A stretch of DNA of 64,000 bases from Pirellulales bacterium (GTDB lineage: Bacteria; Planctomycetota; Planctomycetia; Pirellulales; JAEUIK01), in assembly GCA_019694435.1 (NCBI GenBank), contig JAIBBZ010000017.1, positions 41,565 to 105,564 on the forward strand. The letters are read 5' to 3'. The stretch's first letter is position 1; each line of letters starts with the position of its first letter. The notes below the pieces were generated by a model that was not told the origin of the DNA, searched no databases, and saw only the letters and a program-made list of their open reading frames with translations. Position numbers and translations under genes: made by a program. Shown piece by piece: positions 9,235-64,000 of the stretch.

Positions 9235-9263
9235 AGACTACTCGACCGGGTGGGCGCTGTCAA
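9235..9263 (-). promoter_or_regulatory. sigma70-type promoter of the DUF1501 operon
   Basis: Minus strand TTGACA-17 nt-TAGTCT. Confidence 0.7.
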
Positions 9264-16147: not shown

Positions 16148-16348
16148 TTAGAACAGCGTGTAGATGAACGGGGCCGCGCCGCTGCCGGCAAACATGGCCA
16201 GAACGCCGACCAGGCCCACCACGAGCAGGATCGGCAGCAGCCACCACTTCTTGTTGTGCTTCAAGAAGTCGATGAACTCGGCAGCCAAGCTGGGCTGCGC
16301 CTCGTCGGCCATCTGTTCGAACTTCTTGCCTGGATCTTGAGGGCTCAT
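16148..16348 (-). CDS. DUF5989 / SxtK-like small single-pass membrane protein
   Basis: 66 aa: ...FLKHNKKWWLLPILLVVGLVGVLAMFAGSGAAPFIYTLF. Follows SxtJ-like and carbamoyltransferase genes. Confidence 0.85.
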   Translation of the reverse strand: MSPQDPGKKFEQMADEAQPSLAAEFIDFLKHNKKWWLLPILLVVGLVGVLAMFAGSGAAPFIYTLF

Positions 16349-16403
16349 GTTTGCTGCCGTGGAAACGAGGATCGTCGGGTGTGCCCTGGTCAGGGCTGTG
16401 AGT

Positions 16404-16814
16404 CTAGAACTGGCGCAGATACCGCTCTGGACCGCGATTGGGATTGTACGGTTCCCAATAGCTGGCTGCCGAGCGGTCGAGCTTGCGCCGCAAGGCATCT
16501 CGCCCGATCAGGCGGAACACCAGGGCCACAGGGGTGAAAATGCCAAAATAGATCAAGCCCAGGGCGAGGTGGGAGACCACGAAGCCAATCGGCCAGGTCA
16601 CCAGGCTTAGCCCCAGGAAGGGGTATTTCACCCACTGCGGATTGATCAGCGCCAGCCCGCGCAGCGCGATCGCCGCGACCCAGAAGACGATGGCCGTGGT
16701 TTCATGGCCGCGATACAGCGACCAGGGCGCAGCCACCAGGCCCAAGAGGAACATGCCGAACTCGGCAAATTCCCTGAGCGTCTTGTCCGAGGGGTTCCAG
16801 TTGAGTTGATGCAT
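16404..16814 (-). CDS. SxtJ family membrane protein
   Basis: LREF, hydrophobic helices, IYFGIFTPVALVFRLIGRDAL, SYW...YLRQF C-terminus. Confidence 0.85.
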   Translation of the reverse strand: MHQLNWNPSDKTLREFAEFGMFLLGLVAAPWSLYRGHETTAIVFWVAAIALRGLALINPQWVKYPFLGLSLVTWPIGFVVSHLALGLIYFGIFTPVALVFRLIGRDALRRKLDRSAASYWEPYNPNRGPERYLRQF

Positions 16815-16852
16815 GGCGGTTCGATTGCAGGTGCGGCGGGCAGACCCCGGCG

Positions 16853-18691: not shown

Positions 18692-19342
18692 GATCGCCGG
18701 TGCAGGAGTGACTGGAGAGGGCCGCCCCCTGAAGGAGGCCGTCGCCGAAATGGGGGGCGCGTAGCCGACGGTTGAGGAGCGAGGTCTACGGCGCCGATCG
18801 GTGCCCCGTGGCTAATTTGCTAGCTTCAAGGCCAGGGCGAACCTTGTCAAGCAATGCGCACCAGGGGAAAGCTGCGGATTGCCAGCAGCTTGCGCGAATG
18901 TTTCGAATGTCCGGTTCGTAGCGATCGCGGCGCAAACGGTCGTGCGCGCGGCGTTAGCGATTGGTTTGCCTGTGCCGCGCTCCGACGCCGATTTGTTCGC
19001 GGCGACAGGCTCCGGCCCCGGCGGCGCACGGTCGGAGGCCAAGTAAGATAGCGGTTTTGGTCAGAACAGGTATCGGGCCAGTGGACTCGCGGCGCTTCTG
19101 CCCTCTGGACAGGCGCGTCAGGGACGCCAAAATGGCCGGTTTCCGTTCCATCCGTCGGTCGTTCTCCGGATCGCGTCGTCTCGCTGGATTCGGGGTACCG
19201 CTTCGAGCAGGCTGCTCGCCGGAGTCATTCCGGATTCGGTGCCGACGGTTGACGCCGTTGCCCGCGACGGCTGCGTGAGTCCTGGTTTTGGCAGCGCACG
19301 CTGCAAACGTTTTTTTCCGGGTTTCGTTTGGGGGAGCCTGTT

Positions 19343-21303: not shown

Positions 21304-21897
21304 ATGCAAACACAGCGCAACTATCGCGTGTCGATCGTCGAATGTCCGGACGGCTGGGAACCCAATTCGCTGGACGATTCGCCCGGCGGACTGCGCTGTA
21401 TCGAGGACATTGGCAGTCACGACGCGATTGAAGAAGCACTCGAACAGGTAATTGCCTTCAATCGCGGCGAGATTGACGACGGCCCCAAACGCTGGGCCGT
21501 GGTCTTCGAGCCGCCAGTTCGCGGCCGGTCGCACTATCGCGTGTGCACGCCGCTTACGTACCGACTCGTGCACATCCACTGGCCCGAGGGCTGGCAGCCC
21601 GAGTCGCCGCTCGACGTGCCGACCTGCTCTTGGCGAGATCAATCCGACACCAGCGGCGAATACGGCTTCGACGAGGCCATCGAGGCGGCGCGATCGCTGA
21701 ACGAGGCCCACCTGTTGGAACCCTCGTTCGAGCGTTGGACGATGGTCGTGGCCATCGAATGCGAGCCGCTGCACACCTCGATTTACTGTGATCATCTCGG
21801 CACCGAGACCAGCACTACCGTGCGCCGCCTGCACGTCGTGCGGCCCAACACCGGTTCGCGCGACAAGCTGTTTACGACGGTTCGCAGCTCGCACTAG
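21304..21897 (+). CDS. Hypothetical protein with two tandem copies of an unknown domain
   Basis: PDGWEPNSLDDSP...EEALEQVIAFN...RWAVV versus PEGWQPESPLDVP...DEAIEAARSLN...RWTMVV. Confidence 0.75.
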   Translation: MQTQRNYRVSIVECPDGWEPNSLDDSPGGLRCIEDIGSHDAIEEALEQVIAFNRGEIDDGPKRWAVVFEPPVRGRSHYRVCTPLTYRLVHIHWPEGWQPESPLDVPTCSWRDQSDTSGEYGFDEAIEAARSLNEAHLLEPSFERWTMVVAIECEPLHTSIYCDHLGTETSTTVRRLHVVRPNTGSRDKLFTTVRSSH

Positions 21898-23063
21898 GGC
21901 GACGGTGTTTCCGGCGCTGCGAGCCGCGCGCCGAGGTCTCGAGCGATCCGCTCGGCGACGACCGCGTTGCCCGGTTCGGAGAAGTGGCAAGAGTCGAGAT
22001 AGACGGCATCCCGCACGTCATCAAACATGGCCGTTAAGTCGGCGAATCGCGCAGTGGCGCGTAAGGCGTCGTTCGCCGCGAGCTGCCCGCGGACGTGCCC
22101 CAGCAGTTCCTTGAGCACCGGCCACGCCGAGGCCGCGGCCTGTTCTTCGCCCACGAGTTGACGCTTGTCGAACGCGGTGGGCTGCCAGTAGTACAGCGCC
22201 TCGAATCCTGCGCGGTGACGCGCTGCTTCGACCCAGGCTATGTTCGCGGCGTATATCCGGGCGACGTCTGCCCCGAGTTCGGCAAGCTTGGGCCGGCCGT
22301 CGCCGTCGAAGTGGCTGCGCGCGTCCTGTTCGGCCCCTAGGCGGCGGAGCAACCCACGCACCAGCCAAACCGTGGCCGAATCGAGCGCCTCTAGTTTCAG
22401 GGCCTCGGTCAGCCCGGCGTTGAGCTCCCGGCGGCGGTTGGCTTCGTTCTGCGGAATCCCAGCACGCGACTCCTGGACCGCCGACATGAGGTCGTTGTAG
22501 CCGTTAAGGAACACGACCGCGTCGGGCCTGCGTCCGGTGCGCAGCTCCATCTCCAAGGCCAGCGCGTCCTGCGTGCTGACGTAGCCGATCTGGCCGAAAT
22601 TGGTCACCACGGCCGGCCGGCCTTGGGCTGCCAAAGCAGCCGCCAGATTGGCAGGAATCGTATGGTCGTCGCGGGCCCCCCATCCCCAGACGGTCGAGCC
22701 GCCAAACATCCAGACGCGCAGCGCCTGCGGGTTGTCCTCGGCGGCTGGTTTCGTCCGCCGCAGGCCATCGGGACCGATGTGAATGTACCGGCCGTCGAGT
22801 GGCGCCGACCGCCAGTAGACGTAGGGCTCCCAAGAGATGCCCACGTCTCCCAGAAGTTCGTCCACGTAGTCCGGCGCCCAGTCGGCTCCGCGAAATCCGG
22901 AGCTGGCCGCGATGGCCGCGCGATCGCGGTCGCGCTTGACGTGCAGGACCACGCGCGCGGCTCCCTCGACGAGCAGCAGCCAGATCAACACCACGCCGAG
23001 CACCAGCCAGGCCGTGCGCAGCGCGGCCCCCAGCCTGCCTAGCGAAACCAACCACGCGCGCAT
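21894..23063 (-). CDS. Membrane-anchored SGNH/GDSL-family esterase/acyltransferase
   Basis: N-terminal TM helix, block I FGGST, block II NFGQIGY, block III NGYND, block V DSCH. Confidence 0.85.
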   Translation of the reverse strand: MRAWLVSLGRLGAALRTAWLVLGVVLIWLLLVEGAARVVLHVKRDRDRAAIAASSGFRGADWAPDYVDELLGDVGISWEPYVYWRSAPLDGRYIHIGPDGLRRTKPAAEDNPQALRVWMFGGSTVWGWGARDDHTIPANLAAALAAQGRPAVVTNFGQIGYVSTQDALALEMELRTGRRPDAVVFLNGYNDLMSAVQESRAGIPQNEANRRRELNAGLTEALKLEALDSATVWLVRGLLRRLGAEQDARSHFDGDGRPKLAELGADVARIYAANIAWVEAARHRAGFEALYYWQPTAFDKRQLVGEEQAAASAWPVLKELLGHVRGQLAANDALRATARFADLTAMFDDVRDAVYLDSCHFSEPGNAVVAERIARDLGARLAAPETPSP

Positions 23064-23148
23064 GCGACAGTCCTCGGCGCTCGCCGGAGCAACGATTCCG
23101 GCCAAGCGCCGGATTATGCGTCAAACGTCCGCCAGCGGCAAACCGCGA

Positions 23149-24294
23149 TCACAGGCCGAGCAGGCTGGCAATCAGCGTACGCTGAATTTCGTTGGTGCCC
23201 GAGTAGATCCGGCTGGCCAGCGCGTCACGCAGCTCGCGCTCGATCTGAAATTCGGTCATGTAGCCAGCGGCGCCGTGCAATTGCAGAGCGTCGAGACAGG
23301 TTTGCACCCACGACTCGCTCAGGTAGAGCTTTGCCATCGAGGCTTCCATCAAGGCACTCTTGCCGAGGCTCCGCAGCCAGGCGCCGTGGTAGAGCAGTTG
23401 CCGGGCCGTTTCGAGCCGCAGCTTCATATCGACCACCTTATTGGCGACCGATTGGAACTTGCCGATTGATTGACCGAACTGCTTGCGCTGCCGGGCGTGC
23501 TGCACGCAGGTTTCCAGCAACCGCTGCATCGAACCCACGGCGCTGGCCAGAATGCACCCGCGTTCCCAGGACATCGAGTGGGTGAACAAGCTTGTGCCGG
23601 CGCCCTCCCGGCCCAGGCGGTTTTGCTCGGGCACCTCGCAGTTCTCGAAAAACAGCTCGGCCATGGGCGACGTGCGCAGCCCCATCTTGTCGAGTTTGCG
23701 CCCCACGGTCATACCCGGAGTGTGCTTGTCGACCAGGAACGCCGTGATGCCCCGGGCGCCCTGGGCGCGATCGACCGTGGCGAACACCACGAGCAAGTCG
23801 GCCACGGGCCCGTTGGTGACCCAGATCTTGCTGCCGTTGAGTACGTAGCGATCGCCTTGCCGGGTGGCGCTGGTGCGTAGCGCGTATGAATCGGAGCCGG
23901 TGTCCGGCTCGCTCATCGCGTTGCCCCCGATGAGTTCGCCGCTGCAGAGTCCCGGCAGATAGCGTTGTTTCTGTTCCTCGGTGCCGAAGGCCACGAGCGG
24001 CATCGCAGCCGTCCACAGATGGGCGTTGAGCGAGAACACCAGGCCGTTGTCGGCGCAGGCATAACCGAGCCGTTCGAGCGCGCCGACCGTCGTGACCGCG
24101 TCCAGCCCAAGTCCGCCGTAGTCCTCGGGCACCGGCAGCCCTTGGATGCCGAACTTGCCGCATTCGCGCCAGCCGGCCAGGTCGAATTCCGCGGCCCGAT
24201 CGCGTTCGATCAACTCCTGCCCGAGTGACTTGCGGGCAAAACGCTCGATCGAGTCGAACAGCGTTTTTTGTTCGCTGGTCCAGCCGAATTCCAC
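23149..24294 (-). CDS. Acyl-CoA dehydrogenase family, L-prolyl-[PCP] dehydrogenase-like (PltE/RedW/PigA/AnaB type)
   Basis: GYACADNGLVFS, NAMSEPDTGSD, SMSWERGC, RKQFGQSIG, and IYSGT (Ser where general ACADs have Glu in YEGT). GTG start overlaps the upstream TAG. Confidence 0.85.
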   Translation of the reverse strand: MEFGWTSEQKTLFDSIERFARKSLGQELIERDRAAEFDLAGWRECGKFGIQGLPVPEDYGGLGLDAVTTVGALERLGYACADNGLVFSLNAHLWTAAMPLVAFGTEEQKQRYLPGLCSGELIGGNAMSEPDTGSDSYALRTSATRQGDRYVLNGSKIWVTNGPVADLLVVFATVDRAQGARGITAFLVDKHTPGMTVGRKLDKMGLRTSPMAELFFENCEVPEQNRLGREGAGTSLFTHSMSWERGCILASAVGSMQRLLETCVQHARQRKQFGQSIGKFQSVANKVVDMKLRLETARQLLYHGAWLRSLGKSALMEASMAKLYLSESWVQTCLDALQLHGAAGYMTEFQIERELRDALASRIYSGTNEIQRTLIASLLGL

Positions 24295-25895
24295 TAGGGC
24301 AACTCCTTCAGGCGCTGATAGTCGACCTTGTCGGTCGAAGTCGTCGGCAGGTCCGGGAGAAAGGCAAACAAGTCGGGCACCATGTAGAGCGGCAGCCGTT
24401 CGGAGCAGAATCGCTTGAGCGCGATGACTGACGCCTTTTCCCCTTCGTTCAGGCTGACGAAGGCCTTGACCCGGAGGCCTTCTTCCTCGTCGTGGACGGC
24501 GATCACCGCCGCCTGGCGGATGCCTGCGTGCTGATAGAGACACGCCTCGATCTCGCCCAGCTCGACCCGGTAGCCGCGTTTCTTCACCATGCGATCGCGC
24601 CGACCCCGGTAGAGATAGTCGCCCGCGGCATCGGTCGTCACCAGGTCGCCGGTGCGATACCACTTTTCGCCCGCGGCGTCGGTGAAATAGGCGTTGCGGG
24701 TCTGTTCCTCGAGTCCCCAGTAGCCGCGCGTCACGCTGGCTCCGGCCATGCACAGTTCGCCTGCCTCGCCGGGGGGCACATCGAGGCCTCGTTCGTCGAC
24801 GACGCGCGATCGCAGGTGCGAGCAGGTCTTGCCGATGGGAAAAGGCTCGCTGCGCTCGGGATCGATCGGCAACGGCACCTCGTAAAACGTGCAGACGTTT
24901 GTCTCGGTGGGGCCGTAGAGATTGAAGTATCGTCGGCCCGGCCACTGGGCGACCAGCTCGCGCAGGTGCTTGATCGGGAACACCTCACCGGCAAAGTGCA
25001 CGATCCGCAGGGCCGCGAAGTCGTGCGCTCCGAGCGACCCGTAACGGGCCAGCATCGTCAGGATCGATGGCGTCGAATACCACACGCTGATGCGGCGCTC
25101 TGCGATCAAGGGGGCCAGCTTGCCGGGCTCCTTGCCCGTTTCGTGGCTGATCAGCACGAGCGTAGCCCCGTGCTTGATGGGCACGTAGATGTCCAGAATC
25201 GACAAGTCAAAATGGAATGGCGCGTGCGAACTGAAACGGTCGTCCTCGTGCGGGTCGAGCGCCTCGCTGCACCAGTCGACGAACGACACGGCATTGCGCT
25301 GCGAAAGGATGACCCCCTTGGGCCGGCCCGTCGAGCCCGAGGTGTAGAGCAGATAGGCCAGGTCTTCGGGCTCGCCGATGACCGTTTCGGCCGCTGCGAA
25401 GGGCGCGGCCGTATGGGCCTCGGCCAGGGCCGCCTCGAGCGACGTACCATCGCCGGCACCGGGCAGCACCAAGAGTGGCGGGACGGCACCATATTGCGCG
25501 AGCTCGCTGCGCAACGCCTCGGCGAATCGCGCCTCGACGACCACGGCCTTAACGCTGCAGTTGCCGAACACAAACGCGGCCCGGCTCGTCGGGGCATGCG
25601 GATCGGCCGGCACATAGGCGGCGCCACACTTGAGTACTCCAAAGAGGGCAGCAACCGTGTCGATCGACTTGGTCACGTAGATGCCGACGCGATCGTTGCG
25701 GCCCAGGCCTTGTTGCCGCAGCCAATCGCGCAACCGGTCGGACAACACGGAGAGCAGCTCGTAAGTCACGGACCCGCCGCTGGCAGGATCCTCCACCGCG
25801 ACATGGTGCGGCCGGCGGGCGGCCGAGGCGTCGAGAAACTGGGCGAGCGCCGTGACCCGGGCGGTCGCCGGCGGCGTCAAGGTGGCCTGCGTCAT
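24294..25895 (-). CDS. Stand-alone amino-acid adenylation enzyme, L-proline-[PCP] ligase-like (PltF/RedM/PigI/AnaC type)
   Basis: YTSGSTGRPKG, FDLS, NLYGPTE, YRTGD, GYRVELGEIE, DKVD. Manually read specificity code DLLYHALVCK. Confidence 0.88.
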   Translation of the reverse strand: MTQATLTPPATARVTALAQFLDASAARRPHHVAVEDPASGGSVTYELLSVLSDRLRDWLRQQGLGRNDRVGIYVTKSIDTVAALFGVLKCGAAYVPADPHAPTSRAAFVFGNCSVKAVVVEARFAEALRSELAQYGAVPPLLVLPGAGDGTSLEAALAEAHTAAPFAAAETVIGEPEDLAYLLYTSGSTGRPKGVILSQRNAVSFVDWCSEALDPHEDDRFSSHAPFHFDLSILDIYVPIKHGATLVLISHETGKEPGKLAPLIAERRISVWYSTPSILTMLARYGSLGAHDFAALRIVHFAGEVFPIKHLRELVAQWPGRRYFNLYGPTETNVCTFYEVPLPIDPERSEPFPIGKTCSHLRSRVVDERGLDVPPGEAGELCMAGASVTRGYWGLEEQTRNAYFTDAAGEKWYRTGDLVTTDAAGDYLYRGRRDRMVKKRGYRVELGEIEACLYQHAGIRQAAVIAVHDEEEGLRVKAFVSLNEGEKASVIALKRFCSERLPLYMVPDLFAFLPDLPTTSTDKVDYQRLKELP

Positions 25896-25902
25896 GGGTC
25901 GT

Positions 25903-26163
25903 TCAACCAGCTTGTTTTTCACCGACCAGGCGCACGATGTCGGCGATCGTATTCAGGTACTCGACGTCGGCCTCGTGTGCGGCGATGCCGATGTTGAAAC
26001 GCTCTTCGAGAAACGTGACCAGCTTCAGAATGCCCACCGAGTCGAGGATGCCGGTCGTAATCAATTCGGTGTCCGCAGTCAGTTCGTCGGGGTTTTCTCC
26101 GGGGAGAAAGTTGTCCAAGATGAATTGCTTGACGGCCACGGCGGCCGTGGGATCGAGGGTCAT
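25903..26163 (-). CDS. Acyl/peptidyl carrier protein (type II PCP, PltL/RedO/DltC-like)
   Basis: 86 aa, acidic, GILDSVG phosphopantetheine motif. Confidence 0.9.
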   Translation of the reverse strand: MTLDPTAAVAVKQFILDNFLPGENPDELTADTELITTGILDSVGILKLVTFLEERFNIGIAAHEADVEYLNTIADIVRLVGEKQAG

Positions 26164-26179
26164 GGATGCTCCCGGGGCC

Positions 26180-28759
26180 TTAAGGAATTGCAGAAACGGT
26201 CGGCGCGGCGACGAGCGGCCGCAGTTTTTCATAGAGCCGGTCGGCGATCAGTTCATGCCCCCGCGGCCCGGGATGCGAGTCCCAGGTTTCGACCCACAGC
26301 TCGTTCCAGTCGCGAACGCCGTGATAGGCGCGCGTCAGGTCCCAAACGGTGAAGCCGGTTGCTTCGGCCGCGGCAATCAACTCGGGCAGTTGTTCGAGCT
26401 CCCAGGAACGGTCGTCGAGCCGCGGCAGGAAGGCATAGATCGGCCGAATGCCTGCCGCGCGGCACTGCTCAATCGTCTGGCCATACACCCAGCCGACCAG
26501 TTCCTGGGAACGGCCTTGCAATTGATGCTCGACGACGCGGGCACCATCGCCGGACCGCAATTGATACTCTTCGACGATCTGCCGCACGAAAAGGTCGGGG
26601 AGCGGCAATTCGCGGGCCAGGCAGCGCGCGATGTCGCGCAACACCCATTCCTGGTCGTTCACGCCGAAGAAGATCGCCACATCGGGCTTGAACGCGAGCA
26701 CCTTGTTCTTCAGGCAGTGCAGCCGTGCGTAGGGGCCATAGCTAGGCACCGCGAAATTCATCAGTTCGCAGGCTGGCCGCTGGGGCGTGCCGAATTCGGC
26801 GTTCAGCCGCGCTTCGACGAGCTGCTCGAACACGTGTTGATCGCTCACATGGTGACCTGCCGTGTTCGAATCGCCGAGAATCGCGATGCGCAGCACCCCT
26901 GGCGTCCGCTCGAGGGGATACTCTTGATCCCGCATTCCGTGGCGGTTGTTCGACTGACGAAAGTGGCCCTGGGTGTGGCTGAGCCGGGGAATGTATTCCC
27001 AATTGGGAAACTTGTTGTCCGGGCGATCGTATTCGAACGTCGCGGCGTTCCAGTCTTGCGGGCGCGCCGCATAGAGCTCGGCCAGTTCGGCGTTGTTACG
27101 ATCCTGATCGATCAAATCCTCGTAATAGCCGCGCTCGAGCTTGGCCACGTCTTGCGCATTCAGGGTTTGCCGGGTGAGCCGGTCGAGCGCGTTGGCCACT
27201 TGCGGATAGTCGGCAAACAACAGCGGATTGCGGCCCACGATGAACAGCGCCGCGGACAAGGCGCCCGTCACGAGTGCCGATCGCCAGAATTCTGCGTCAG
27301 CCGCTTCGTTACGGCGCTGCCGCGGGGCATCGGTCCGCTCGCTCGAGGAATGACCCCACAGCACGGCGGCGACGCCAAACAGGGCGAGCCCCCCGAAGAT
27401 CAGCACGGCGTCGATCGGCGACATCACGGCGAACTTCGACAAGAGCGAGGTCCACTCGTGCCAAGACGGCGTGTTCCACAGCGACCACAGCAGGCAGATG
27501 AACGTGAACATCGCGATCGTCCGCAGGGCAAAGGCGAACTCGTCACGCCAGGTGCGGCTGCCCTTGGTGAGTTTGCGCTTGCGAGTCGCGCGGGCCTCGT
27601 AGGCCACGTTCAGCACGACGCCGACACCGAGGATCGTCCAGAAGGCGATGTCCTGCCAGGTAACCAGAAAATGGCCGCTGAGCCAGAAGAACTGATACGA
27701 GTGCAAACACCAGGTGGCGAAGAACGCCAACGCGGTGGCCGCCAACAGGCCGAACAACTCGCCCCGTCGCTTGAGCCGGAAGTAGATCGGGTAGAAGAAC
27801 AGCTTCTGGATGAAGTCCTTCCAGTAGATGTTGATCCTGCGCCAGAAGTCAGTGAAGCTCGAGGCGAGCAAGTAGCGGTGGTGCGTCTCGGAGAGGTTGA
27901 AACCGAAGAGGTGCAGCAAGCCCACGATCAGGTGAAAATTGCCCGAAACCCGCAGGTAAAGCAGGAAATTGGCCAGGATATATTGTGCCGCGTCGCGGGC
28001 GTTCGCCACGTGGTGCGTATCGATCACCAGGTTCTGGTACACGAAGCGGTAGAGAATCAACTGGATCACGCCGCGCACGATCCAGTCGACGCCCTTTTGG
28101 TAGATCTCGAACGCGTCGCGATTGTAGCGCGTGCGGAGAAACGTCTTGTAATCGACGATGGGGAACAGCGTGAAGCATGCGTTGGGGGCCATGAAGAAGT
28201 AGGCCAGCGTGGACCAGAGCTCGCCTTTGGCCGCGCCGGTCTGCAGATCGTAGACGTAGATCAGCAGCCGGAACATGAACAGCCCGGCGAGAATCGGCAG
28301 AATCGCGTGTAATTCCGGCAACGTGCCGTAGGCACGCAGCCAGCCGAGCCCGATGCCCAGCGCTACCAGCAGGGCCACGCGCATCCACAATCGAAAAGGC
28401 AAATGGACGACGCCGATCAGCAATGCTCCCAGCCCGATCACGTACAGCCCGTTGATCCCCATCAGCACGACGATCAACGCCAGCGAAAACACACCGAAGA
28501 AGGGCAGTCGCATCCGCGTTGGCAGCAGGTGATGAATGACGAAGCCGGCGCAGATCAATGCGAACTGGTAACGAAAGGCGCGCTTGTCGATCTGCCACAC
28601 CGAAAGCACCAGGGCCACAAGCGCCAATTGCATGCAAAGGGCCAGCAGCCGCGCGGTGGCCACGGCCAACGCCCGCAGCCGCTGGAGGCGTTCGTCCGGG
28701 TGGGTGATTTGAGCTTGTTCGAAAGGGTGGGCTGCGGATTGGGTGAGTGAGGTCGCCAT
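26180..28759 (-). CDS. MBOAT O-acyltransferase (AlgI/DltB-like) fused to a C-terminal SGNH domain
   Basis: Many TM helices, GFNL...YLLASSFTDFWRRINIYW, TWCLHSYQ. C-terminal GDS, NFAVPSYG, GVND, DSHPGPRGH. Confidence 0.85.
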   Translation of the reverse strand: MATSLTQSAAHPFEQAQITHPDERLQRLRALAVATARLLALCMQLALVALVLSVWQIDKRAFRYQFALICAGFVIHHLLPTRMRLPFFGVFSLALIVVLMGINGLYVIGLGALLIGVVHLPFRLWMRVALLVALGIGLGWLRAYGTLPELHAILPILAGLFMFRLLIYVYDLQTGAAKGELWSTLAYFFMAPNACFTLFPIVDYKTFLRTRYNRDAFEIYQKGVDWIVRGVIQLILYRFVYQNLVIDTHHVANARDAAQYILANFLLYLRVSGNFHLIVGLLHLFGFNLSETHHRYLLASSFTDFWRRINIYWKDFIQKLFFYPIYFRLKRRGELFGLLAATALAFFATWCLHSYQFFWLSGHFLVTWQDIAFWTILGVGVVLNVAYEARATRKRKLTKGSRTWRDEFAFALRTIAMFTFICLLWSLWNTPSWHEWTSLLSKFAVMSPIDAVLIFGGLALFGVAAVLWGHSSSERTDAPRQRRNEAADAEFWRSALVTGALSAALFIVGRNPLLFADYPQVANALDRLTRQTLNAQDVAKLERGYYEDLIDQDRNNAELAELYAARPQDWNAATFEYDRPDNKFPNWEYIPRLSHTQGHFRQSNNRHGMRDQEYPLERTPGVLRIAILGDSNTAGHHVSDQHVFEQLVEARLNAEFGTPQRPACELMNFAVPSYGPYARLHCLKNKVLAFKPDVAIFFGVNDQEWVLRDIARCLARELPLPDLFVRQIVEEYQLRSGDGARVVEHQLQGRSQELVGWVYGQTIEQCRAAGIRPIYAFLPRLDDRSWELEQLPELIAAAEATGFTVWDLTRAYHGVRDWNELWVETWDSHPGPRGHELIADRLYEKLRPLVAAPTVSAIP

Positions 28760-29103: not shown

Positions 29104-29132
29104 ACCCTAAATGTGCCCTTGGCGAATGTCAA
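29104..29132 (-). promoter_or_regulatory. sigma70-type promoter for the MBOAT-PCP-A-dehydrogenase operon
   Basis: Minus strand TTGACA-17 nt-TAGGGT inside an AT-rich intergenic island. Confidence 0.6.
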
Positions 29133-29284
29133 CTAATTTTGTGCTCAATCGCAGCTAAGTATTTATCTTGTCGTGGCTTGCGATATGGCAGTCAACACCC
29201 GCCACTAGGAATAGCCGGATCCGGGGCACCGATCCGCCATAGAAAAAAATGCCGCCACTGGCACGCTACGCGCCAGTCGATTGG

Positions 29285-29941
29285 CTAGCGGATAATTCGC
29301 AGCAGAGTCTGCAGAATCAAACGAACGTCGAACGCCAGCGAGGCCTGCGGAATGTACTCCCGGGCCAACCGAATCTTGTCCGGCAAGACGCGTTCGACAT
29401 ATTCACGCTCCGGATCGGCGGCCGCTGCCAGGATCTCCGATTCGTCGCGGTATTTGACGCTGGCCAGGTCGGTAATTCCCGGCCGCACCAGCAGCACGTC
29501 GGCGTAATCCTGGCGGAACATCTCGACGTACTTGGGCACCTCCGGACGCGGCCCCACGAGACTCATGTCGCCCGCGACGACATTGATCAACTGCGGCAAC
29601 TCGTCGACTTTCGTCTTGCGCAGCCAATGACCAACACGGGTGATTCGGGGATCGCGGCCCGCGGTGATCTGCGCGCCGAGCTTGGGCGCATCGACCACCA
29701 TGGAACGGAACTTGTAAATGCGAAAGGGCCGGAAGCCGCGCCCTACGCGCTGCTGCCGAAAAAATACCGGCCCTGGCGAGTCGAGCTTGACCGCCAGCGC
29801 AGCAGCCAAGAGCACCGGCGACACCAGTAGCAGCCCCGTGCCAGCCGCGGCGACGTCGAAGGCGCGCTTAAGTGCGGCCGTCGTCAGCGATGGCGGCGCG
29901 AGCGTTGGTTGTGCTGGCGAAACGTTGACGTCCGCGGTCAC
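29285..29941 (-). CDS. Initiating sugar phosphotransferase (Bac_transf / PglC-like PGT)
   Basis: KRAFD, FRQQRVG, YKFRSM, DPRITRVGHWLRKTKVDELPQLINV, MSLVGPRPE, RPGIT. Confidence 0.93.
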   Translation of the reverse strand: MTADVNVSPAQPTLAPPSLTTAALKRAFDVAAAGTGLLLVSPVLLAAALAVKLDSPGPVFFRQQRVGRGFRPFRIYKFRSMVVDAPKLGAQITAGRDPRITRVGHWLRKTKVDELPQLINVVAGDMSLVGPRPEVPKYVEMFRQDYADVLLVRPGITDLASVKYRDESEILAAAADPEREYVERVLPDKIRLAREYIPQASLAFDVRLILQTLLRIIR

Positions 29942-39088: not shown

Positions 39089-40306
39089 CTAGACGCACGG
39101 CTCCAGGGCCGGTTCGAGTCGCTCGCGGCCCAGGCAGGCGGCGGCCTCCTCGGCAATCGCGGCCGCAAATGCCTCGACCGTCGTGCGGCGCGCGCGCTCG
39201 ATGCCCGCCTGCCGCAAGCGTTCGCGCAGCGGACGGTCCTGGGCGAGCCGGGCCAGGGCGGCGTACAGGGCTGCCGCATCGTCCGGCGGCACTAGCAGGC
39301 CGTCGACCTCGTCTTCGACCGACGTCGGAATGCCGCCCACGCGACTGGCCACTACAGTGCAGCCAAACGCCCGGGCCTCGACCAGCACGCGCGGCGTACC
39401 CTCGCTGCGACTGGGCACCGCCAACACGTCGGCATCGGCGAAACAGGCGAACAGCTCGGGACCAAACTCGCGATGGCCGAGGAATCCGACCGTGGCCCGG
39501 CCTTGCAGTCGCGCCAAGGAACGCTGCAGGTCTTCGGTCATACCGCGGTCTTCCATGTTTTGTGAACCGACGAAGAACAACTCCGCAGTGGGCACTTCGT
39601 CGAGCAGTTTTTCGAAGGCCGCGAACAGCGTGTCGATGCCTTTTTCGTGCCGCAGGTAGCCGACGAACAACACCCGGAACGGTGCGTCGGCCGGCCGGCT
39701 GCGCGGCACGCTCATCACCTCGCGGGCCGAGAGCGTCGATGAGACGACCGCACGCCCCCGCGGCGAACCATAATGTGCAAACAGATCCGCGCCGTTCGTG
39801 ACGACCCGGGCCAAGGGCCAGTGAATCAATCGCCGCTGCAGGCGATCGGTCTGCTTGGAGACGAACGACGCCAGCAGGTGCATGGGGCCCCGATACCAGG
39901 GCGAAGTGCTGGCAATGGCGTGGACGTCGGCACACACGTGATACAGCCGCGGACGCGCAGGGAACAACAGCCCCAGCGTGGCGGCGAACGGCAATTGCAC
40001 GATGACCACGTCGCTGACGCGTTCGACGAGCCGGATCGCCTGCCAGCAGCCCGGCGCCTTGTAGAAGCCGCGCGCGACGCTGGGCAACCAAGGCAGCGGT
40101 ACGAAATCAAAACTCTGGTCGGCGCAGCGATGGTCGTGCCAGCGCTGCCGCCCCGGCGCGAGGCTCATCGCGACCGTGAGCCGGCGGGCGTCCTGCTGCC
40201 AGATGTCCAACAGCCTCCCTACGCCCGCTTCGGTCCAAAACCCGTCGACCACCGAGGCCGAACGCGCACTCACAAAGCCGACGTTCAGCCCGGCGAGCGC
40301 GGTCAC
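39089..40306 (-). CDS. Glycosyltransferase family 4
   Basis: VLFVGYLRHEKG, PSRSEGTPRVLVEA. Clear paralogue of 30600-31814. Confidence 0.92.
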   Translation of the reverse strand: MTALAGLNVGFVSARSASVVDGFWTEAGVGRLLDIWQQDARRLTVAMSLAPGRQRWHDHRCADQSFDFVPLPWLPSVARGFYKAPGCWQAIRLVERVSDVVIVQLPFAATLGLLFPARPRLYHVCADVHAIASTSPWYRGPMHLLASFVSKQTDRLQRRLIHWPLARVVTNGADLFAHYGSPRGRAVVSSTLSAREVMSVPRSRPADAPFRVLFVGYLRHEKGIDTLFAAFEKLLDEVPTAELFFVGSQNMEDRGMTEDLQRSLARLQGRATVGFLGHREFGPELFACFADADVLAVPSRSEGTPRVLVEARAFGCTVVASRVGGIPTSVEDEVDGLLVPPDDAAALYAALARLAQDRPLRERLRQAGIERARRTTVEAFAAAIAEEAAACLGRERLEPALEPCV

Positions 40307-41655
40307 CGAGTCCTCCGCGGCAGGGCACGCATCCCAGGCACGGGCCGCATGCCGGGGCGTGGCTGGCGACCGGCCGTCCGGCTGCGCTGTTCGTCCGCCG
40401 GCTTCCAGACCCCCTCGACCACGCACCAGCCGATGCAAATGCCGATGCCCATGCAGAACACGGGGCTATAGAGGATTTCGCGCGAGAAGAACCCGCGGAT
40501 GCCCCACATCAGGATCATCATCTTCATGATGTAGTGGGCACTGGCCGCGCGCTCGTTGCCGAAAAAGTCGCTGGGCACCCCCGAGGGGCGCTTCCACAGC
40601 AGGTAGGCCGAAAGGAACAGCGTGAACATGGCCGGATAGCCGCTGCCGCCCGTGACGTGTGCAAATACGTTGTGCGAGTCGATCGTACCGTCCATGCCGA
40701 ACACCCGGTGGGCCAGCATGAAGAACAGCTCTTGCGGCGAGACGCCCAGGAGCGGATGTTCCAAGCCGATCTGCAGCGAAGCCATCAGCAACTGAATACG
40801 TTTGCCGTCGGTCGTCTTGCCTTCGGTCGTGGCTTCCATATGGTGCTGCACGACGTCGAACATGCCGAGCTGTTCCATTACCAGGAACACCAGGCCCGCG
40901 GCCAGAACGAAATAGAGCATCGTCTGGATCTTCTTGCCGCGACCGAGGAACAACATCGGCGGTACGACGGCCAGTCCCAGCCAGCCGGAGCGGTTGGCCG
41001 AGGCCAGCACCGAGATCGAGATGATGACGAACGCCGTTCCGCAGAAGATGCGCAGCGATTTGCTCACCGTCTTGTCGAGCGTCATATAGCCGCCCAACAA
41101 CAGCGGCGGCAAGTTGTACAGCGACCAGGAGTTTTCGTTGCTGGTCTCGAGCGGGTCGACGCCGATGTAGCTGGCGCTGGGTGCCGCGAGACCTTTGAGC
41201 GCCATGATCACCAGCGCCACGGTGAGCCCGACGACTCCGGCCCGAAAATCGCTCCGCGACGTTACGGCCAAGGCGGCGGTGATCATGGTCCCGGCGCCGG
41301 CCAGCAGTTTGACCGGTTCCTGGTAGTAGGGAATCGTGCTGCTGAACACCGAGAGGATGTACAAGGTGGAAAAGATGGCCGTCGTCGTCAGCACCGACAG
41401 GGGAAACCGCCCCAGCCGGGTGAAAAACAGATAGATAAACAACGGCAGCATCGCGATCAGGTACGGATGCGCGTTGAGCGCCGGGATGGGAATCCGCAGC
41501 TTTTCCCAGGCACTCATCGAGATCATCACCGCGAACACGAACATCCATTTTCCGGTTAGCGAGACGCGCTCCTTTTGCTCGGGCCGCGCGAAGGGCGCTG
41601 CCCCGGGCAGGGGGAAACCGGGTCGCGGGACGGCAAAGTTTCCAGGGGCGCGCAT
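40303..41655 (-). CDS. O-antigen ligase / Wzy polymerase family membrane protein
   Basis: About 11-12 TM segments, SANRSG, HPLLGV and DSHN Wzy_C motifs. Confidence 0.82.
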   Translation of the reverse strand: MRAPGNFAVPRPGFPLPGAAPFARPEQKERVSLTGKWMFVFAVMISMSAWEKLRIPIPALNAHPYLIAMLPLFIYLFFTRLGRFPLSVLTTTAIFSTLYILSVFSSTIPYYQEPVKLLAGAGTMITAALAVTSRSDFRAGVVGLTVALVIMALKGLAAPSASYIGVDPLETSNENSWSLYNLPPLLLGGYMTLDKTVSKSLRIFCGTAFVIISISVLASANRSGWLGLAVVPPMLFLGRGKKIQTMLYFVLAAGLVFLVMEQLGMFDVVQHHMEATTEGKTTDGKRIQLLMASLQIGLEHPLLGVSPQELFFMLAHRVFGMDGTIDSHNVFAHVTGGSGYPAMFTLFLSAYLLWKRPSGVPSDFFGNERAASAHYIMKMMILMWGIRGFFSREILYSPVFCMGIGICIGWCVVEGVWKPADEQRSRTAGRQPRPGMRPVPGMRALPRRTR

Positions 41656-41762
41656 TGCTAGGCGGCACTCCGAACGGAGCAACGAGGTCGGGCTGGGGCG
41701 TCGGCAACGCCTCGCACAATTCTACGACATTTTTCGGATTTCGTTGCCAATTGCACCGCGGC

Positions 41763-49241: not shown

Positions 49242-50864
49242 TTACTCGGGAATCGTCGTCGACACGGGTTCTGCCGCACCTGCAGACGCTGCGGCGTTTT
49301 CGGACGCGGCCTCGGTCCGCTCTGCGCTCGACCCAGCCTCCGGCTCTCTGGTCGACTCAGCCTCCGGCTCTGCGTTCGGTTTTTGCTTTTTACCGCGGCC
49401 GGCGCGCTGTTTCGTGAGCTTGTCGAACAAGATCCTTACGCGATGCCGTTCGTGCTCTGATCGCAGCAGGATCAAGGCGACGATCGCCGGGTAGGCGAGC
49501 GACAGAACCAGCGCCAAGGCACTGCGCTCGATCAAGCCCAAGCCGCTCGACAGCCAGGCATTGAACAGGATGAGCGCGGACGACACCAGCAGCAGCGAGC
49601 CGATCACGGGCCAGTCGTACTTGATGGGGAACTGCCGCTGGGAGAGCAGGTAGATGATCGTGGCCATCACCAGCCAGCTCAGCGCCGAGGCGCAGGCCGC
49701 GCCCGCGCCTAAGAATGACGGCACCAGCACGAGCGAGCCGACCATGACCGTCGCCAGGCCTGACAGGGTTACGAGCGGCATCGCTCGCGTGTTGTCTCCC
49801 AATTCGATCCCGGTGCCCAACATGAAATACATGCCTTCGCACAAGGGAATGATCGCGGTGATCGGTACGAGCGCCGCGGCCGTGTGATAGCTGGGCGCGG
49901 TCATCAGCACCAGCAACAGCGGCCCCCACAGCGAGACACCCAGCCACAAATAGGTGGAGCCCGCCAGGTAGTACGTGACGATGCCGCGAAACGTCCCCAT
50001 CGGGTCGGCGTCGTCGGCGTGAATCTGGAATTTGAAGGGCACCCAGGCCTTTTGTACGGAGTTGACGATGAAGGCGAAGGGCAGCGAGAACTTGAGCGCC
50101 ATGCCGTAGAGCCCGGTCTCGCGGGCGCCGAGCCATTGATTCACGACGATCTGGCCAAACACGCCCAGCAGCACGCCCATCAGGTGATGGAATACGAAGG
50201 GCAGTCCGTAGGAGAACATCGCGCCCCAGGTGGCGCGGCTCATCGTCAACCCGAATCGCGACCGGGTGGCGACGAACGTCGCCACGGTCGAGGCGATCGA
50301 CCCGACGAGCGTGCCATACACCGAGCCGGCAACGCCCAGGTGCATGACGGTCACGAAGAACACCGTCGGCAGGATGGTGCTGAGCACCTTGAAGATGCTG
50401 ATTTGGGCCACGGTCTTCACGTGGCGATCGGCCCGGAGCGTGACCAGGCCGATGTTCTGCACGCTGTGCAACATGGCCGAGAGGATCGTCAGCCAGACCA
50501 GGCCGATGAGCTGCGGATCGTGCAACAGGTGTTGCGCCAGCAACGGCGACGCGAGGAAGCAAATCGCCCCGAACGCGGCCGTCGAGCCGACCACGCTGAC
50601 CAGGCCCGTGCTGAGCACGTCCCGCCGGGCGGACTCGTCCTTGCTGACGTTGAACCGGCGAAAGATGGCATTTGACATGCCGATATTCGCCACGGGCACG
50701 TACAGGCCCATGAAGATATTGAGCATGTCGAGGATGCCGTAATCGGCGGGCCCCAGGTACCGCGTCAGCAGCGGCACCAGCAGGAAATTGATCAATTGGC
50801 TCAGCGCCGTCGCGACGCCGAAGACCAAGGAATCGCCGAGGAGGCTTAAGAGCTTACGAAACAT
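49242..50864 (-). CDS. wzx: Wzx-type oligosaccharide flippase
   Basis: PLLTRYLGPADYG, 12-14 TM segments, GLYGMA, YGLP. Confidence 0.88.
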   Translation of the reverse strand: MFRKLLSLLGDSLVFGVATALSQLINFLLVPLLTRYLGPADYGILDMLNIFMGLYVPVANIGMSNAIFRRFNVSKDESARRDVLSTGLVSVVGSTAAFGAICFLASPLLAQHLLHDPQLIGLVWLTILSAMLHSVQNIGLVTLRADRHVKTVAQISIFKVLSTILPTVFFVTVMHLGVAGSVYGTLVGSIASTVATFVATRSRFGLTMSRATWGAMFSYGLPFVFHHLMGVLLGVFGQIVVNQWLGARETGLYGMALKFSLPFAFIVNSVQKAWVPFKFQIHADDADPMGTFRGIVTYYLAGSTYLWLGVSLWGPLLLVLMTAPSYHTAAALVPITAIIPLCEGMYFMLGTGIELGDNTRAMPLVTLSGLATVMVGSLVLVPSFLGAGAACASALSWLVMATIIYLLSQRQFPIKYDWPVIGSLLLVSSALILFNAWLSSGLGLIERSALALVLSLAYPAIVALILLRSEHERHRVRILFDKLTKQRAGRGKKQKPNAEPEAESTREPEAGSSAERTEAASENAAASAGAAEPVSTTIPE

Positions 50865-61930: not shown

Positions 61931-64000
61931 TTAGGCCGGTGTCTTGGCCTTTCCGCGCGGCTTGGCGGCCGGTTTGGCCGGCTTGGCCTTGGCGACCTTG
62001 GCCGGTTTGCCCTCGCCAGTGCCCGGGCCGCCCGTGCCAGGCAGTTCCGGCATGCGACGCACAAGCGGCGTATCGACCCCGTTGACCACGGTGCCGAGCA
62101 CGGCAATGCCGACCGATTCCAGGCGCTCGCAGGCCTCGTAGACCTTGGGAGCACGGCTGGACGACCGCAACACCGACAGGACCACGCCGTCGGCATGTTG
62201 GCCGACCGTCAGCGTATCGGCCGTGCTGAGCACCGGAGCGGCGTCGATCACGACGTAATCGAACTCGCAGCGCATCCGGGCAAAGAGTTGCCGCAATTCG
62301 TTCTTGGCCAGGGCATGGATGCATTCGCGGCAAACCTTGCCAGCCGCGACGATCCAGAGCCCGGCGGCACGCGTCGGCCGAATGGCATCGTCCAGTTCGG
62401 TCTCACCGCGGAGCACTTCGCACAAGCCGGGTTCCAGCGGCATTTCGTACAGGCGATGCGCCGATGGGCTGCGCAGGTCGGCATCGACCAGCAGCGTGCG
62501 GCGCCCGGCGCGGGCCAGGCTGGCGGCCAACTGCGTGGCGACCGTGGTCTTGCCCTCGCGTGCCACGGCGCTGGTGACCAGGATCACGCGGAGCGAGTCG
62601 CCGCGTTCGCTGTGCAGCAGCGAGGTGCGAATCCCGTCGATCGATTCAGCGAGCATGCCGCGGACCGCCGCGCCCCGCGCCCCACGCGTCGACAGGTGCG
62701 GCAGGACGCCGATCACCTTCATGCCCAGGCCCTCGCCAACCTCGTTCACGTTGGCGATCCGGCGGGAGTTGAACTCGAGCAGCGCCACACCGACCAGCGA
62801 ACCCAGCATGCCCAGCACGCCGCAGATCAGCACGATGCCGTACTTGGTCATCAAATTGTTGCCCTGGATCGCCGCTGGATCGAGCAGGCGGACGCGTTCC
62901 GGCGAATCGAGCTCGATGCGCAACTGGTTCACTTCTGTGGCGATTTTGGCGGTGACCTCTTCGAGCTCTTTGAGCTCGGCCGATTTCGATTGCAACTCGG
63001 AGGACTGCTTGGTGAGATTGACCACCTGCGCTTGCATCCCCGCCAGACGGTCTTCCGCCTTGCGCAGGTGATCGCGGCGCAGCTTCAGTTCGACGTTGTA
63101 ATTGGCCAACTCGTTGCGTGTCTTGGTGACGTTTTCCTGCTTGACGAGCACGATCAGCTCTTGCCGGGCCTGGGCACGGCGCTGGGCCATGTCGTCCTGG
63201 AGCTGCGCGAGTTTGTCTTCCATTGCCTGCAACATGCGGTTTGCAGCCGAGGCATTGCCCCGGGCCGTGGCCCGGCGTGACTCAAAGGCCACGCGCAAAT
63301 CCATCAGGTTCTTTTGCAGGGCCTGATACTCGACGTTGTCCTTGAGGTACTCGTCGATCATGGCCTCGGTAACCAGCGGCTCTTCGCTCTGGGCCTGGTT
63401 CAGCTTGGCAGTCGACAAGCCAACCTGCATTTCCAGGTCGTTGACGTGGCGCTTGGCAATGATCACTTCTTCGTGCGTGGTCAGCAGGTCGCGGTCGAAG
63501 GCCTCGAGCTTGCGCTTGACCGACTCGTTGCTGATCGAGCCGGTGCTCGCCGCGAGCGTTTCGATCTTTTCCCGCATCGAGGTGATTTCGCCGCGGTTCT
63601 TACGCAAGATGTCATTGAGCTTGGTGTACCTGGCGTCTCGGACCAGCCGATCTTGGCCGACGACTTCTTTGAGATACGCCTTGACGACGCCGTCGACGAT
63701 TTCCTTCAATTCGCCCGGGTCCTGGCCCCAAAGCGACACGCTCAGCAACTGGCCGTCGCCCGGGAACGACGCCACGATGTTCTTCGCCAGGAAGGTTACC
63801 TGATCTGCCTCGGCCATGATCATCGGCGCCTTACCGACGTTTTCGTCGCGCAGAGCCACGTTCAGTACGAACGGGTTGGTCATCATCGTGGTCTGTGTGC
63901 GCTTGAACGTGACGAATTCTTCCGGTCCCACCCGTTCCGCAAAAATGTTGGCCGGCGGCATGATCTCGGCGCGCAACCAGCTCGTGGCCTGATACTTCGT
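61931..64000 (-). CDS. wzc: Wzc-like polysaccharide co-polymerase / BY-kinase (5'-truncated by window edge)
   Basis: Long periplasmic coiled coil, TM helix, Walker A SAVAREGKTT, A' VDADLR, B VIDAAP. The frame is open to position 64000. Confidence 0.88.
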   Translation of the reverse strand, partial: TKYQATSWLRAEIMPPANIFAERVGPEEFVTFKRTQTTMMTNPFVLNVALRDENVGKAPMIMAEADQVTFLAKNIVASFPGDGQLLSVSLWGQDPGELKEIVDGVVKAYLKEVVGQDRLVRDARYTKLNDILRKNRGEITSMREKIETLAASTGSISNESVKRKLEAFDRDLLTTHEEVIIAKRHVNDLEMQVGLSTAKLNQAQSEEPLVTEAMIDEYLKDNVEYQALQKNLMDLRVAFESRRATARGNASAANRMLQAMEDKLAQLQDDMAQRRAQARQELIVLVKQENVTKTRNELANYNVELKLRRDHLRKAEDRLAGMQAQVVNLTKQSSELQSKSAELKELEEVTAKIATEVNQLRIELDSPERVRLLDPAAIQGNNLMTKYGIVLICGVLGMLGSLVGVALLEFNSRRIANVNEVGEGLGMKVIGVLPHLSTRGARGAAVRGMLAESIDGIRTSLLHSERGDSLRVILVTSAVAREGKTTVATQLAASLARAGRRTLLVDADLRSPSAHRLYEMPLEPGLCEVLRGETELDDAIRPTRAAGLWIVAAGKVCRECIHALAKNELRQLFARMRCEFDYVVIDAAPVLSTADTLTVGQHADGVVLSVLRSSSRAPKVYEACERLESVGIAVLGTVVNGVDTPLVRRMPELPGTGGPGTGEGKPAKVAKAKPAKPAAKPRGKAKTPA

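Follow-up and report, generated by a model that had tools for sequence, protein, structure and literature searches.

A predicted proline-oxidizing carrier cassette linked to an MBOAT-SGNH fusion in a Pirellulales bacterium: a candidate route for pyrrole-2-carbonyl groups to the cell surface

Introduction

MBOAT-SGNH systems, as set out in the available part of PMC12148441, move an acyl group in two steps: a histidine catalyses its transfer to a tyrosine in an FxYxxF shuttle, from which it goes on to the serine of the SGNH protein. In the same account, Dlt is the pathway that uses a carrier protein, and the other systems use acyl-CoA. According to the accessible portion of PMC10849742, RedW, PltE and Bmp3 perform a four-electron oxidation to pyrrole using a catalytic glutamate. 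We analysed a stretch of 64,000 nt (the window; all coordinates are positions in it) from contig JAIBBZ010000017.1 of the Pirellulales bacterium assembly GCA_019694435.1, in which four minus-strand genes encode an MBOAT-SGNH fusion, a peptidyl carrier protein, a stand-alone adenylation (A) enzyme and a dehydrogenase of the acyl-CoA dehydrogenase fold. A sequence-only reading of this DNA had proposed that proline is loaded onto the carrier, oxidized, exported through the MBOAT and esterified to a surface polysaccharide.

Each of the four genes can be assigned to a fold or family, their catalytic residues are intact, and their linkage is conserved. The feature is real, conserved and uncharacterized, and we read it as a system of carrier-dependent MBOAT-SGNH envelope acylation. 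The literature searched, with most subscription papers outside the search and the sources available in part, contained no description of the cassette, nor, among the papers listed, of pyrrole-2-carboxylic acid as a glycan substituent.

Results

Predicted loading and oxidation of proline on the carrier

The A enzyme (24294..25892, minus strand; 532 aa) is predicted to be specific for L-proline. Its pocket region scored 158 bits against 6o6e, an L-proline-carrier ligase, 83 bits against 7thn and 79 bits against the best DltA; on two DltA models the enzyme scored 282 and 280 bits, below the cut-offs of 476 and 560. We take 6o6e to be PltF and 7thn to be PigI, names supported by the partner chains called PltL and PigG. 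The pocket code had been read as DLLYHALVCK from the sequence, and the alignment confirmed it. It is equal to the nine residues aligned from 6o6e (DLLYLALVC) at eight positions, and the conserved lysine is also present. We compared the pocket codes over 55 aligned cassette A domains, including the query. DLLYLALVCK, whose first nine positions are those of 6o6e, was found in 37 and DLFYLALVCK in 4. Position 299 was Asn in 5, Phe in 4 and His in 3 sequences, two sequences were cut at the last position, and 16 of the 55 differed from DLLYLALVCK at one position. The pocket scores and the eight equal positions support proline loading well.

The carrier (25903..26163, minus strand; 86 aa) matched the Pfam PP-binding family, with Ser42 in an LDSV motif. 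Its best solved relatives were 2my5, 6cxt_A and PltL, and DltC scored lower. The best NCBIfam model was that of an ornithine-lipid acyl carrier protein, at 106 bits against a cut-off of 130. We dropped this identity because OlsH does not need an acyl carrier protein according to the available part of PMC12493201, in which an MBOAT is never mentioned, and because no OlsH- or OlsI-like gene is annotated nearby.

The dehydrogenase (23149..24294, minus strand; 381 aa) carries Glu244 in a WER motif, and both this motif and IYSGT are as the sequence-only reading gave them. Among solved structures it matched the prolyl-acyl carrier protein dehydrogenase 4irn with 486 bits, 6cxt with 346 bits and 5zw0 with 320 bits. 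On the PigA model it scored 460 (cut-off 500) and on the RedW model 444 (cut-off 650), where a true PigA scored 403. We built a FastTree phylogeny of 74 proteins, restricted to matches with at least 330 aligned residues. The backbone of the tree did not resolve, and all 52 cassette dehydrogenases together with 10 natural-product-type enzymes, one of them a bona fide PigA, grouped apart from 12 generic dehydrogenases in a clade starred at 100. These matches, Glu244 and the clade with PigA support oxidation on the carrier, and we regard it as highly probable that proline is both loaded and oxidized there.

An MBOAT-SGNH fusion with an invariant double tyrosine

The fusion (26180..28759, minus strand; 859 aa) consists of a DltB-fold MBOAT domain (residues about 56-441), extra helices, a flexible linker with a GYY motif and an SGNH domain (about 620-850). 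Pfam detected only the C-terminal GDSL_2 domain (residues 627-837). The MBOAT domain had no match in Pfam, NCBIfam or the PDB sequences, and the Pfam MBOAT model PF03062 did not match any of the 10 family members scanned at an E value of 0.05. Since these sequence libraries gave no match, the MBOAT assignment rests on fold and profile alignment. An AlphaFold2 model was built from a 60-sequence alignment (predicted local distance difference test, pLDDT, 86). In Foldseek, the DltB structures 6bug and 8jem ranked first, and with VIA the MBOAT part (residues 59-438) matched 8jem_B with a Z score of 19.5 and a root-mean-square deviation of 4.6 over 365 aligned residues. Profile alignments to two Pfam-MBOAT proteins were weak (probability 53 and 39). 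Both placed WRRINIYW onto the FWxRWH motif, and the second placed His353 onto the histidine of WHG.

Homologues of the fusion numbered 2771 among 7995 candidates, and residue conservation was counted among the 120 homologues listed. His353 (27701..27703, minus strand), the predicted catalytic histidine of the MBOAT, was invariant in 120/120. The SGNH catalytic set, Ser631, Asn668, Asp827 and His829 (26273..26869, minus strand), was likewise complete, each residue occurring in 120/120. The fold matches and these residues support well the claim that the partner of the proline enzymes is an MBOAT of the DltB fold whose SGNH domain keeps its catalytic triad, and we consider export of the product by this MBOAT very probable. 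The SGNH domain is inferred to lie outside the cytoplasm.

The fusion contains no canonical FxYxxF shuttle motif; a separate DltX-like micro-ORF (ORF, open reading frame) was not systematically searched, and the gaps after the fusion and carrier genes are 16 and 10 bp. Gly544, Tyr545 and Tyr546 of a GYYE motif (Tyr545-Tyr546 at 27122..27127, minus strand) were invariant in all 120 homologues, and segment 540-564, which holds them, had a pLDDT below 50 and is probably mobile. One of the two tyrosines is a candidate acyl shuttle. In all four split forms, the MBOAT gene stops after the core, and the YY motif is carried by the SGNH gene, close to its beginning and preceded by a short hydrophobic stretch. 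Judged from these sequence features, GYY is likely a tyrosine shuttle that replaces DltX. Three split cassettes (L134:7221-15083, L135 and L136; loci are numbered as in our genome scan) belong to one planctomycete genus and comprise genes for dehydrogenase, MBOAT, carrier, A enzyme and SGNH protein, followed by those for Wzx and a sulfotransferase, the gene content having been scanned in L134 and L136.

Linkage of the proline triad and the fusion across genomes

The genome scan gave 605 confirmed stretches among at least 617, and the counts below refer to the best 80. A carrier gene lay beside the MBOAT gene in 68/80 loci, an A enzyme gene in 62/80, a dehydrogenase gene in 59/80 and all three in 56/80. 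These 56 complete cassettes occur in 11 named phyla and in several gene orders. The remaining 24 include 16 loci that end within 2 kb downstream of the MBOAT gene, two with two of the three genes at a contig edge and six apparent exceptions (L006, L031, L050, L058, L066 and L075). In L006 (9998-12745), a shortened MBOAT-SGNH gene runs into an ISAzo13-type transposase gene, and no triad is nearby. In L075 (8249-20482), the same MBOAT-SGNH family stands between Wzy and Wzx with another carrier, another A enzyme (DYYPSTMRCK) and a pyridoxal phosphate-dependent decarboxylase. The family may thus export acyl groups of other kinds as well.

A separate sample of 400 Planctomycetota genomes contained eight with the MBOAT, and the triad was adjacent in seven of them; by locus, two of nine MBOAT genes had no adjacent triad. 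The linkage of homologous triads to the MBOAT, on which the sequence-only reading had staked its proposal, is therefore supported in both sets. Pairwise identities covaried over 48 loci (Spearman 0.71 for MBOAT and A enzyme, 0.69 for MBOAT and dehydrogenase; kinship alone raises such values). A comparable dehydrogenase was found in 0 of 30 relatives, none scoring above 276 bits, so the distribution of the cassette is patchy.

Two loci without the complete arrangement were also recorded. On plasmid NZ_CP049039.1 (L099:6721-15152), genes for a carrier, a dehydrogenase, a methyltransferase and an A enzyme are next to YjbH, YjbF and a gene for polysaccharide export; the 15 kb fetched contained no MBOAT match. 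The genome studied here has a second carrier-dependent MBOAT locus (L105:3453-11786; G000:C19, about 189-198 kb), composed of an SGNH/AlgX-like gene, a gene for a stand-alone A enzyme whose pocket differs (DVSFLALICK), a carrier gene, an SGNH-like gene and a Pfam-positive AlgI-type MBOAT gene; no dehydrogenase gene was seen in it.

Halogenase genes in related cassettes

Flavin halogenases with a WxWxIP motif are encoded inside or directly after five cassettes: two each in L010 and L035 and one each in L052, L129 and L130. The L052 enzyme scored 412-415 bits against PltA, 5buk and ChlB4, and one from L035 scored 236 bits against 5bva, which we take to be Bmp2. The title of a paper cited in PMC10849742 gives a pyrrolyl-S-carrier protein as the substrate of PltA. 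Because five cassettes carry PltA- or Bmp2-like halogenases, we favour aromatic pyrrole over pyrroline as the product; arguing from these genes of other cassettes, we hold it to be probable. The sequence-only reading had left both products open, and for this locus the preference for pyrrole is carried by related cassettes. An FAD (flavin adenine dinucleotide) protein beside the MBOAT in L058 has no WxWxIP motif and was rejected as a halogenase, and a fragment at the edge of L131 was not counted.

Other genes accompany some cassettes. L129 (7041-15000) and L130 (8654-16501) contain an O-methyltransferase-family gene in addition to a PltA-like halogenase gene, suggesting a methylated halopyrrole. 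L010 (13659-17075) and L035 (8068-12562), both from Verrucomicrobiota, have a Na/H-exchanger-family gene and two 5bva-like halogenase genes between the MBOAT and carrier genes, and both loci are rich in sulfation and glycosyltransferase genes. Electron transfer flavoprotein (ETF) genes directly follow the A gene in three Verrucomicrobiota loci and could be a plausible electron sink; in L077 (14751-18655), L079 (14499-18331) and L036 (13879-16314), ETF beta, ETF alpha and a CCG-domain Fe-S oxidoreductase are encoded after the A enzyme, and these genes precede the dehydrogenase gene in L077 and L079. A B12-binding gene after the dehydrogenase gene of L002 was rejected as a pyrrole methylase, as it matches the C-terminal domain of methylmalonyl-CoA mutase.

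Glycan-assembly genes near the cassettes

We collected 502 neighbouring ORFs within 6.5 kb of the cassettes and scanned 410 cluster representatives with Pfam. As queries for glycan assembly, 41 Pfam-confirmed proteins drawn from these loci were used, with the same locus and near-copies excluded, and 500 matched random draws from one genome, the query's own, served as the control. Of the 67 loci that had 3 kb of flank or more, 21 had a glycan-assembly gene within 6.5 kb, compared with a mean of 3.3 and a maximum of 10 in the draws. With at least 9 kb of flank, 16 of 41 loci had one, compared with 2.2 in the draws. The enrichment is six- to sevenfold and covers about a third of the loci. Apart from the core genes themselves, glycosyltransferases formed the largest cluster of neighbours (13 loci), and Wzx directly adjoins the MBOAT or SGNH gene in L064, L075, L134 and L136. 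The Microvirga VF16 cassette is located among glycosyltransferase genes. Cultured Microvirga strains carry dehydrogenases of the query's clade, and in two of them, M. zambiensis WSM3693 and Microvirga sp. VF16, the cassette is inside a glycan locus. M. aerophila DSM 21344 and Aromatoleum anaerobium LuFRes1 are further cultured, non-pathogenic carriers of the cassette.

We consider a surface glycan the likely acceptor. The proposed esterification to a polysaccharide gains from this enrichment, and the acceptor itself is inferred, because 46 of the 67 loci show no glycan-assembly gene nearby.

Layout of the locus and neighbouring genes

As the sequence-only reading stated, the four genes and a fifth one downstream are all on the minus strand, and the first four are tightly packed: the fusion and carrier genes are 16 bp apart, the carrier and A enzyme genes 10 bp; the A enzyme and dehydrogenase genes share 1 bp in a TAG/GTG overlap, where an AAGGAG ribosome site lies, and 85 bp separate the dehydrogenase gene from the fifth gene. 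A predicted promoter-like sequence, TTGACA-17-TAGGGT (29104..29132, minus strand), precedes the MBOAT start by 345 bp. The sequence proposed as the promoter of the run is thus present, although the promoter scanner did not call it, its -10 box matching at 3 of 6 positions. The relaxed pattern TTGACA-17-TAnnnT occurred twice in the window, compared with 0.14 times in shuffled sequences, and 67 times in the genome; the second match in the window is at 9235-9263 (minus strand), and there is no third.

Upstream of the cassette is a long minus-strand glycan operon with genes for a priming transferase, GT4 glycosyltransferases, an aminotransferase, Wzy, Wzx, NeuA/B/C-like proteins and a Wzc-type kinase. 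The gene for the priming sugar transferase (29249..29941, minus strand) is the last of this operon and is followed by a terminator-like hairpin (29264-29249). Wzy (40303..41682), Wzx (49242..50864) and the Wzc-type kinase (61931..63976), all on the minus strand, are in the window, and an exosortase gene is just past its end on the upstream glycan side. Downstream of the cassette, the Pfam scan detected carbamoyltransferases, an epimerase and a UDP-sugar dehydrogenase. The description of the run as lying inside a Wzx/Wzy/Wzc locus holds in that glycan-type genes occur on both sides, with the three named genes 11-33 kb upstream.

No match to ketosynthase, condensation-domain, ketoacyl synthase III (KAS-III) or two halogenase queries was found by tblastn on this contig, and polyketide synthase (PKS) and condensation-domain genes are present on other contigs of the genome. 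No thioesterase family was detected among the 56 ORFs of the window that were scanned, which are not all of its ORFs. The claimed lack of such genes around the cassette agrees with these searches. Three phosphopantetheinyl transferase (PPTase)-family genes are present in the genome. The window contains planctomycete-typical Pfam domains, and the GC content of the cassette genes, overall and at third codon positions (GC3), falls in the range of the window's other measured genes or close to it. Contigs from four DNA runs (two studies) match pieces of the region without differences, none covering all of it, and no RNA run was listed as containing it.

The fifth gene (21894..23063, minus strand; 389 aa) encodes a stand-alone, membrane-anchored SGNH protein with one hydrophobic segment (residues 14-32) and the catalytic motifs GGS, GYND and DSCH. 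It adjoins the cassette and has a promoter-like site of its own (23141-23113). The best 80 loci contained no orthologue, only weak matches of at most 44 bits, and five homologues elsewhere had no cassette gene near any of them. Since no orthologue occurs in those loci, this protein is not to be counted in the acyl relay, contrary to what had been proposed, nor is it a core member of the cassette. It may act in a different modification of this glycan.

Other genes of the window were noted. A carbamoyltransferase gene with SxtJ and DUF5989 genes (16148-18691, minus strand) and a second, divergent carbamoyltransferase gene (19328-21097, plus strand) likely represent other glycan modifications; close homologues of the former are near three other cassettes (L015, L025 and L052). 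An ORF of 197 aa (21304-21897, plus strand) is convergent with the gene for the stand-alone SGNH protein, which it overlaps by 4 bp, and had no match in Pfam or NCBIfam. A PaaK/F390-like AMP-dependent ligase and a DUF362 protein are encoded within the glycan operon (36132-39082, minus strand).

Discussion

We propose the following mechanism. The A enzyme would adenylate L-proline and load it onto Ser42 of the carrier, which would be primed by a PPTase from elsewhere in the genome. The FAD-dependent dehydrogenase, with Glu244, would remove four electrons to give pyrrolyl-2-carbonyl-S-carrier, and some cassettes may next halogenate or methylate the pyrrole ring. The MBOAT would accept the thioester at the cytoplasmic face, and His353 would transfer the acyl group onto Tyr545 or Tyr546 in the mobile outer linker, in place of DltX. 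From the tyrosyl ester the group would pass to Ser631 of the SGNH domain and from there to an acceptor hydroxyl, forming an ester. In this genome, the most likely acceptor is the exosortase-linked Wzx/Wzy polysaccharide whose genes surround the cassette. For this complete chain, from proline to a pyrrole-2-carbonyl ester on a surface glycan, we see about even chances.

Several observations weigh against this chain, and other explanations draw on them. The acyl group could be made and exported as proposed and yet end on a widespread envelope component (a lipid, lipid A or core, peptidoglycan or a surface protein, for example) instead of a Wzx/Wzy polysaccharide. The 46 loci without a nearby glycan-assembly gene, many of them among housekeeping genes, fit such an acceptor, as does the patchy occurrence of the cassette (0/30 relatives, MBOAT in 8/400 genomes of the phylum), and eukaryotic lipid and protein MBOATs are nearly equal in fold (Z 17.6 vs 19.5). 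In the separate sample, four of seven triad loci had no glycan gene and the three with one come from one genus, and the enrichment itself was measured against a single genome on related, non-independent loci. We nevertheless consider this explanation unlikely, given the size of the enrichment, the four loci where Wzx directly adjoins the MBOAT or SGNH gene, and the MBOAT-SGNH pairs named in the available parts of PMC12148441 and PMC9558356, all of which acylate envelope polymers; the latter source also shows, with oafA/oafB, that acylation genes may sit apart from the glycan cluster. A role outside the envelope polymers is suggested by the SGNH part, whose fold neighbours are mostly esterases and whose top VIA match is CgnD, a natural-product protein (Z 21.2). 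The fusion might then be an exporter-hydrolase that frees pyrrole-2-carboxylate in the periplasm, or a tailoring enzyme that esterifies a secreted metabolite, and the halogenases and methyltransferases of some cassettes, as well as a PKS upstream in L002, resemble natural-product tailoring. No scaffold gene is conserved, glycosyltransferases being the largest non-core neighbour cluster, and a small acid should need no covalent transmembrane relay, which makes this reading very improbable.

The chemistry on the carrier leaves less room. Oxidation might stop after two electrons, so that a pyrroline-carbonyl or related dehydroprolyl group would reach the glycan. Among solved structures the dehydrogenase is closest to 4irn, which we take to be AnaB, an enzyme that reportedly stops at pyrroline. 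In addition, tblastn found no halogenase on this contig, and neither of the two halogenase-bearing cassettes in the tree falls in the query's 11-member dehydrogenase clade. The match to 4irn is not diagnostic of pyrroline, because the L052 dehydrogenase, from a cassette with a PltA-like halogenase, also matches 4irn first (458 vs 329 bits), as does a distant member. The query shares its NAHxW motif with L035, which has two halogenases, the PltE and RedW structures did not turn up as comparators, and an ester of this cyclic imine would be expected to break down once outside the cell. In the available part of PMC10849742, 6cxt is identified as Bmp3 and AnaB is itself spoken of with pyrrole formation. 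A pyrroline product is quite improbable in our judgement. His299 of the query, present in only three of the 55 cassette A domains, at a position where Asn and Phe also occur, might indicate a specificity shifted to a proline analogue or another amino acid. We regard such a shift as highly improbable, since of the two solved proline ligases one has Leu and the other Ile at position 299, the remaining nine pocket residues agree, and L001, the closest relative at 70% identity, has Leu at 299. That the proline triad and the fusion are unrelated neighbours, as the 6/80 loci and the 2/9 loci of the separate sample with no adjacent triad might suggest, is hardly credible and largely refuted already by their linkage in 56/80 loci, which span 11 named phyla and differ in gene order, and by the covariation of their identities, even though kinship contributes to the latter.

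The general form of the proposal is that a widespread, undescribed pathway, in at least 11 phyla, has taken over the pyrrole module of antibiotic synthesis and exports aromatic pyrrole-2-carbonyl groups, in some species halogenated or methylated, onto surface polysaccharides, through a fused MBOAT-SGNH protein with an internal GYY loop in place of DltX; we put this slightly below even chances. If true, bacteria would display natural-product-like, even organohalogen, groups covalently on their envelope. There would also be, as far as the available portions of the literature go, a second carrier-dependent MBOAT-SGNH class besides Dlt, in which the acyl group is built and oxidized on the carrier. 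The predictions that follow are pyrrole or halopyrrole esters on glycans, an architecture in which MBOAT and SGNH are fused, and a tyrosine shuttle of non-canonical type. Many triads that genome mining has labelled 'pyrrole antibiotic' genes may serve to modify the envelope, a role missed because Pfam is blind to this MBOAT.

Comparison with known systems

The cassette resembles the natural-product triads PltF/L/E, PigI/G/A, RedM/O/W, Bmp4/1/3 and the anatoxin enzymes AnaC/D/B in its A pocket, carrier relatives, dehydrogenase clade and catalytic glutamate, and five cassettes share with such triads a PltA- or Bmp2-type halogenase. It differs in that its contig has no PKS, condensation domain or KAS-III, and in that its conserved partner is a membrane acyltransferase. 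CloN2 and CloN7 reportedly transfer a pyrrole group to noviose in aminocoumarins. This would also be a pyrrole-2-carbonyl ester on a sugar hydroxyl, made in the cytoplasm by transferases of KAS-III-like and hydrolase folds on a small antibiotic, unlike the exported group proposed here; triads of the KAS-III type without an MBOAT were found in L097 and L103. The Plesiomonas O-polysaccharide carries an oxopyrrolidine-carboxylic acid, and thus a five-membered nitrogen-ring acid on a surface glycan, according to the accessible part of PMC3210612. There it is a saturated, non-aromatic pyrrolidone in amide linkage to an amino sugar, and we found no link to the cassette.

PatAB, AlgI/J/X and WssH, which O-acetylate peptidoglycan, alginate and cellulose, also combine MBOAT and SGNH proteins, often in Gram-negative polysaccharide loci, and their MBOAT core motifs align with the fusion. 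They use acyl-CoA without a carrier and have a C-terminal FxYxxF motif, as described in the part of PMC12148441 available, whereas the cassette combines a carrier with an A enzyme and an oxidase, and its MBOAT obtains no Pfam MBOAT score. It therefore does not belong to the AlgI/PatA type, defined by a Pfam MBOAT and a carrier-free acyl-CoA donor.

Compared with Dlt (DltA/C/B/X/D), which D-alanylates teichoic acids, the A enzyme is of the proline type and not a D-alanine enzyme, a dehydrogenase is added, the MBOAT and SGNH parts are fused in most members and separate genes in the four split loci, and the hosts are mostly diderms, here with a planctomycete-type genome. The FxYxxF shuttle, which Dlt has on DltX or the MBOAT, is absent from the fusion, which has the invariant GYY instead. 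What the cassette shares with Dlt is a stand-alone A enzyme beside a phosphopantetheine carrier with its serine in place, a DltB-fold MBOAT with an invariant histidine, the SGNH Ser-Asp-His triad and, probably, the use of a tyrosine shuttle.

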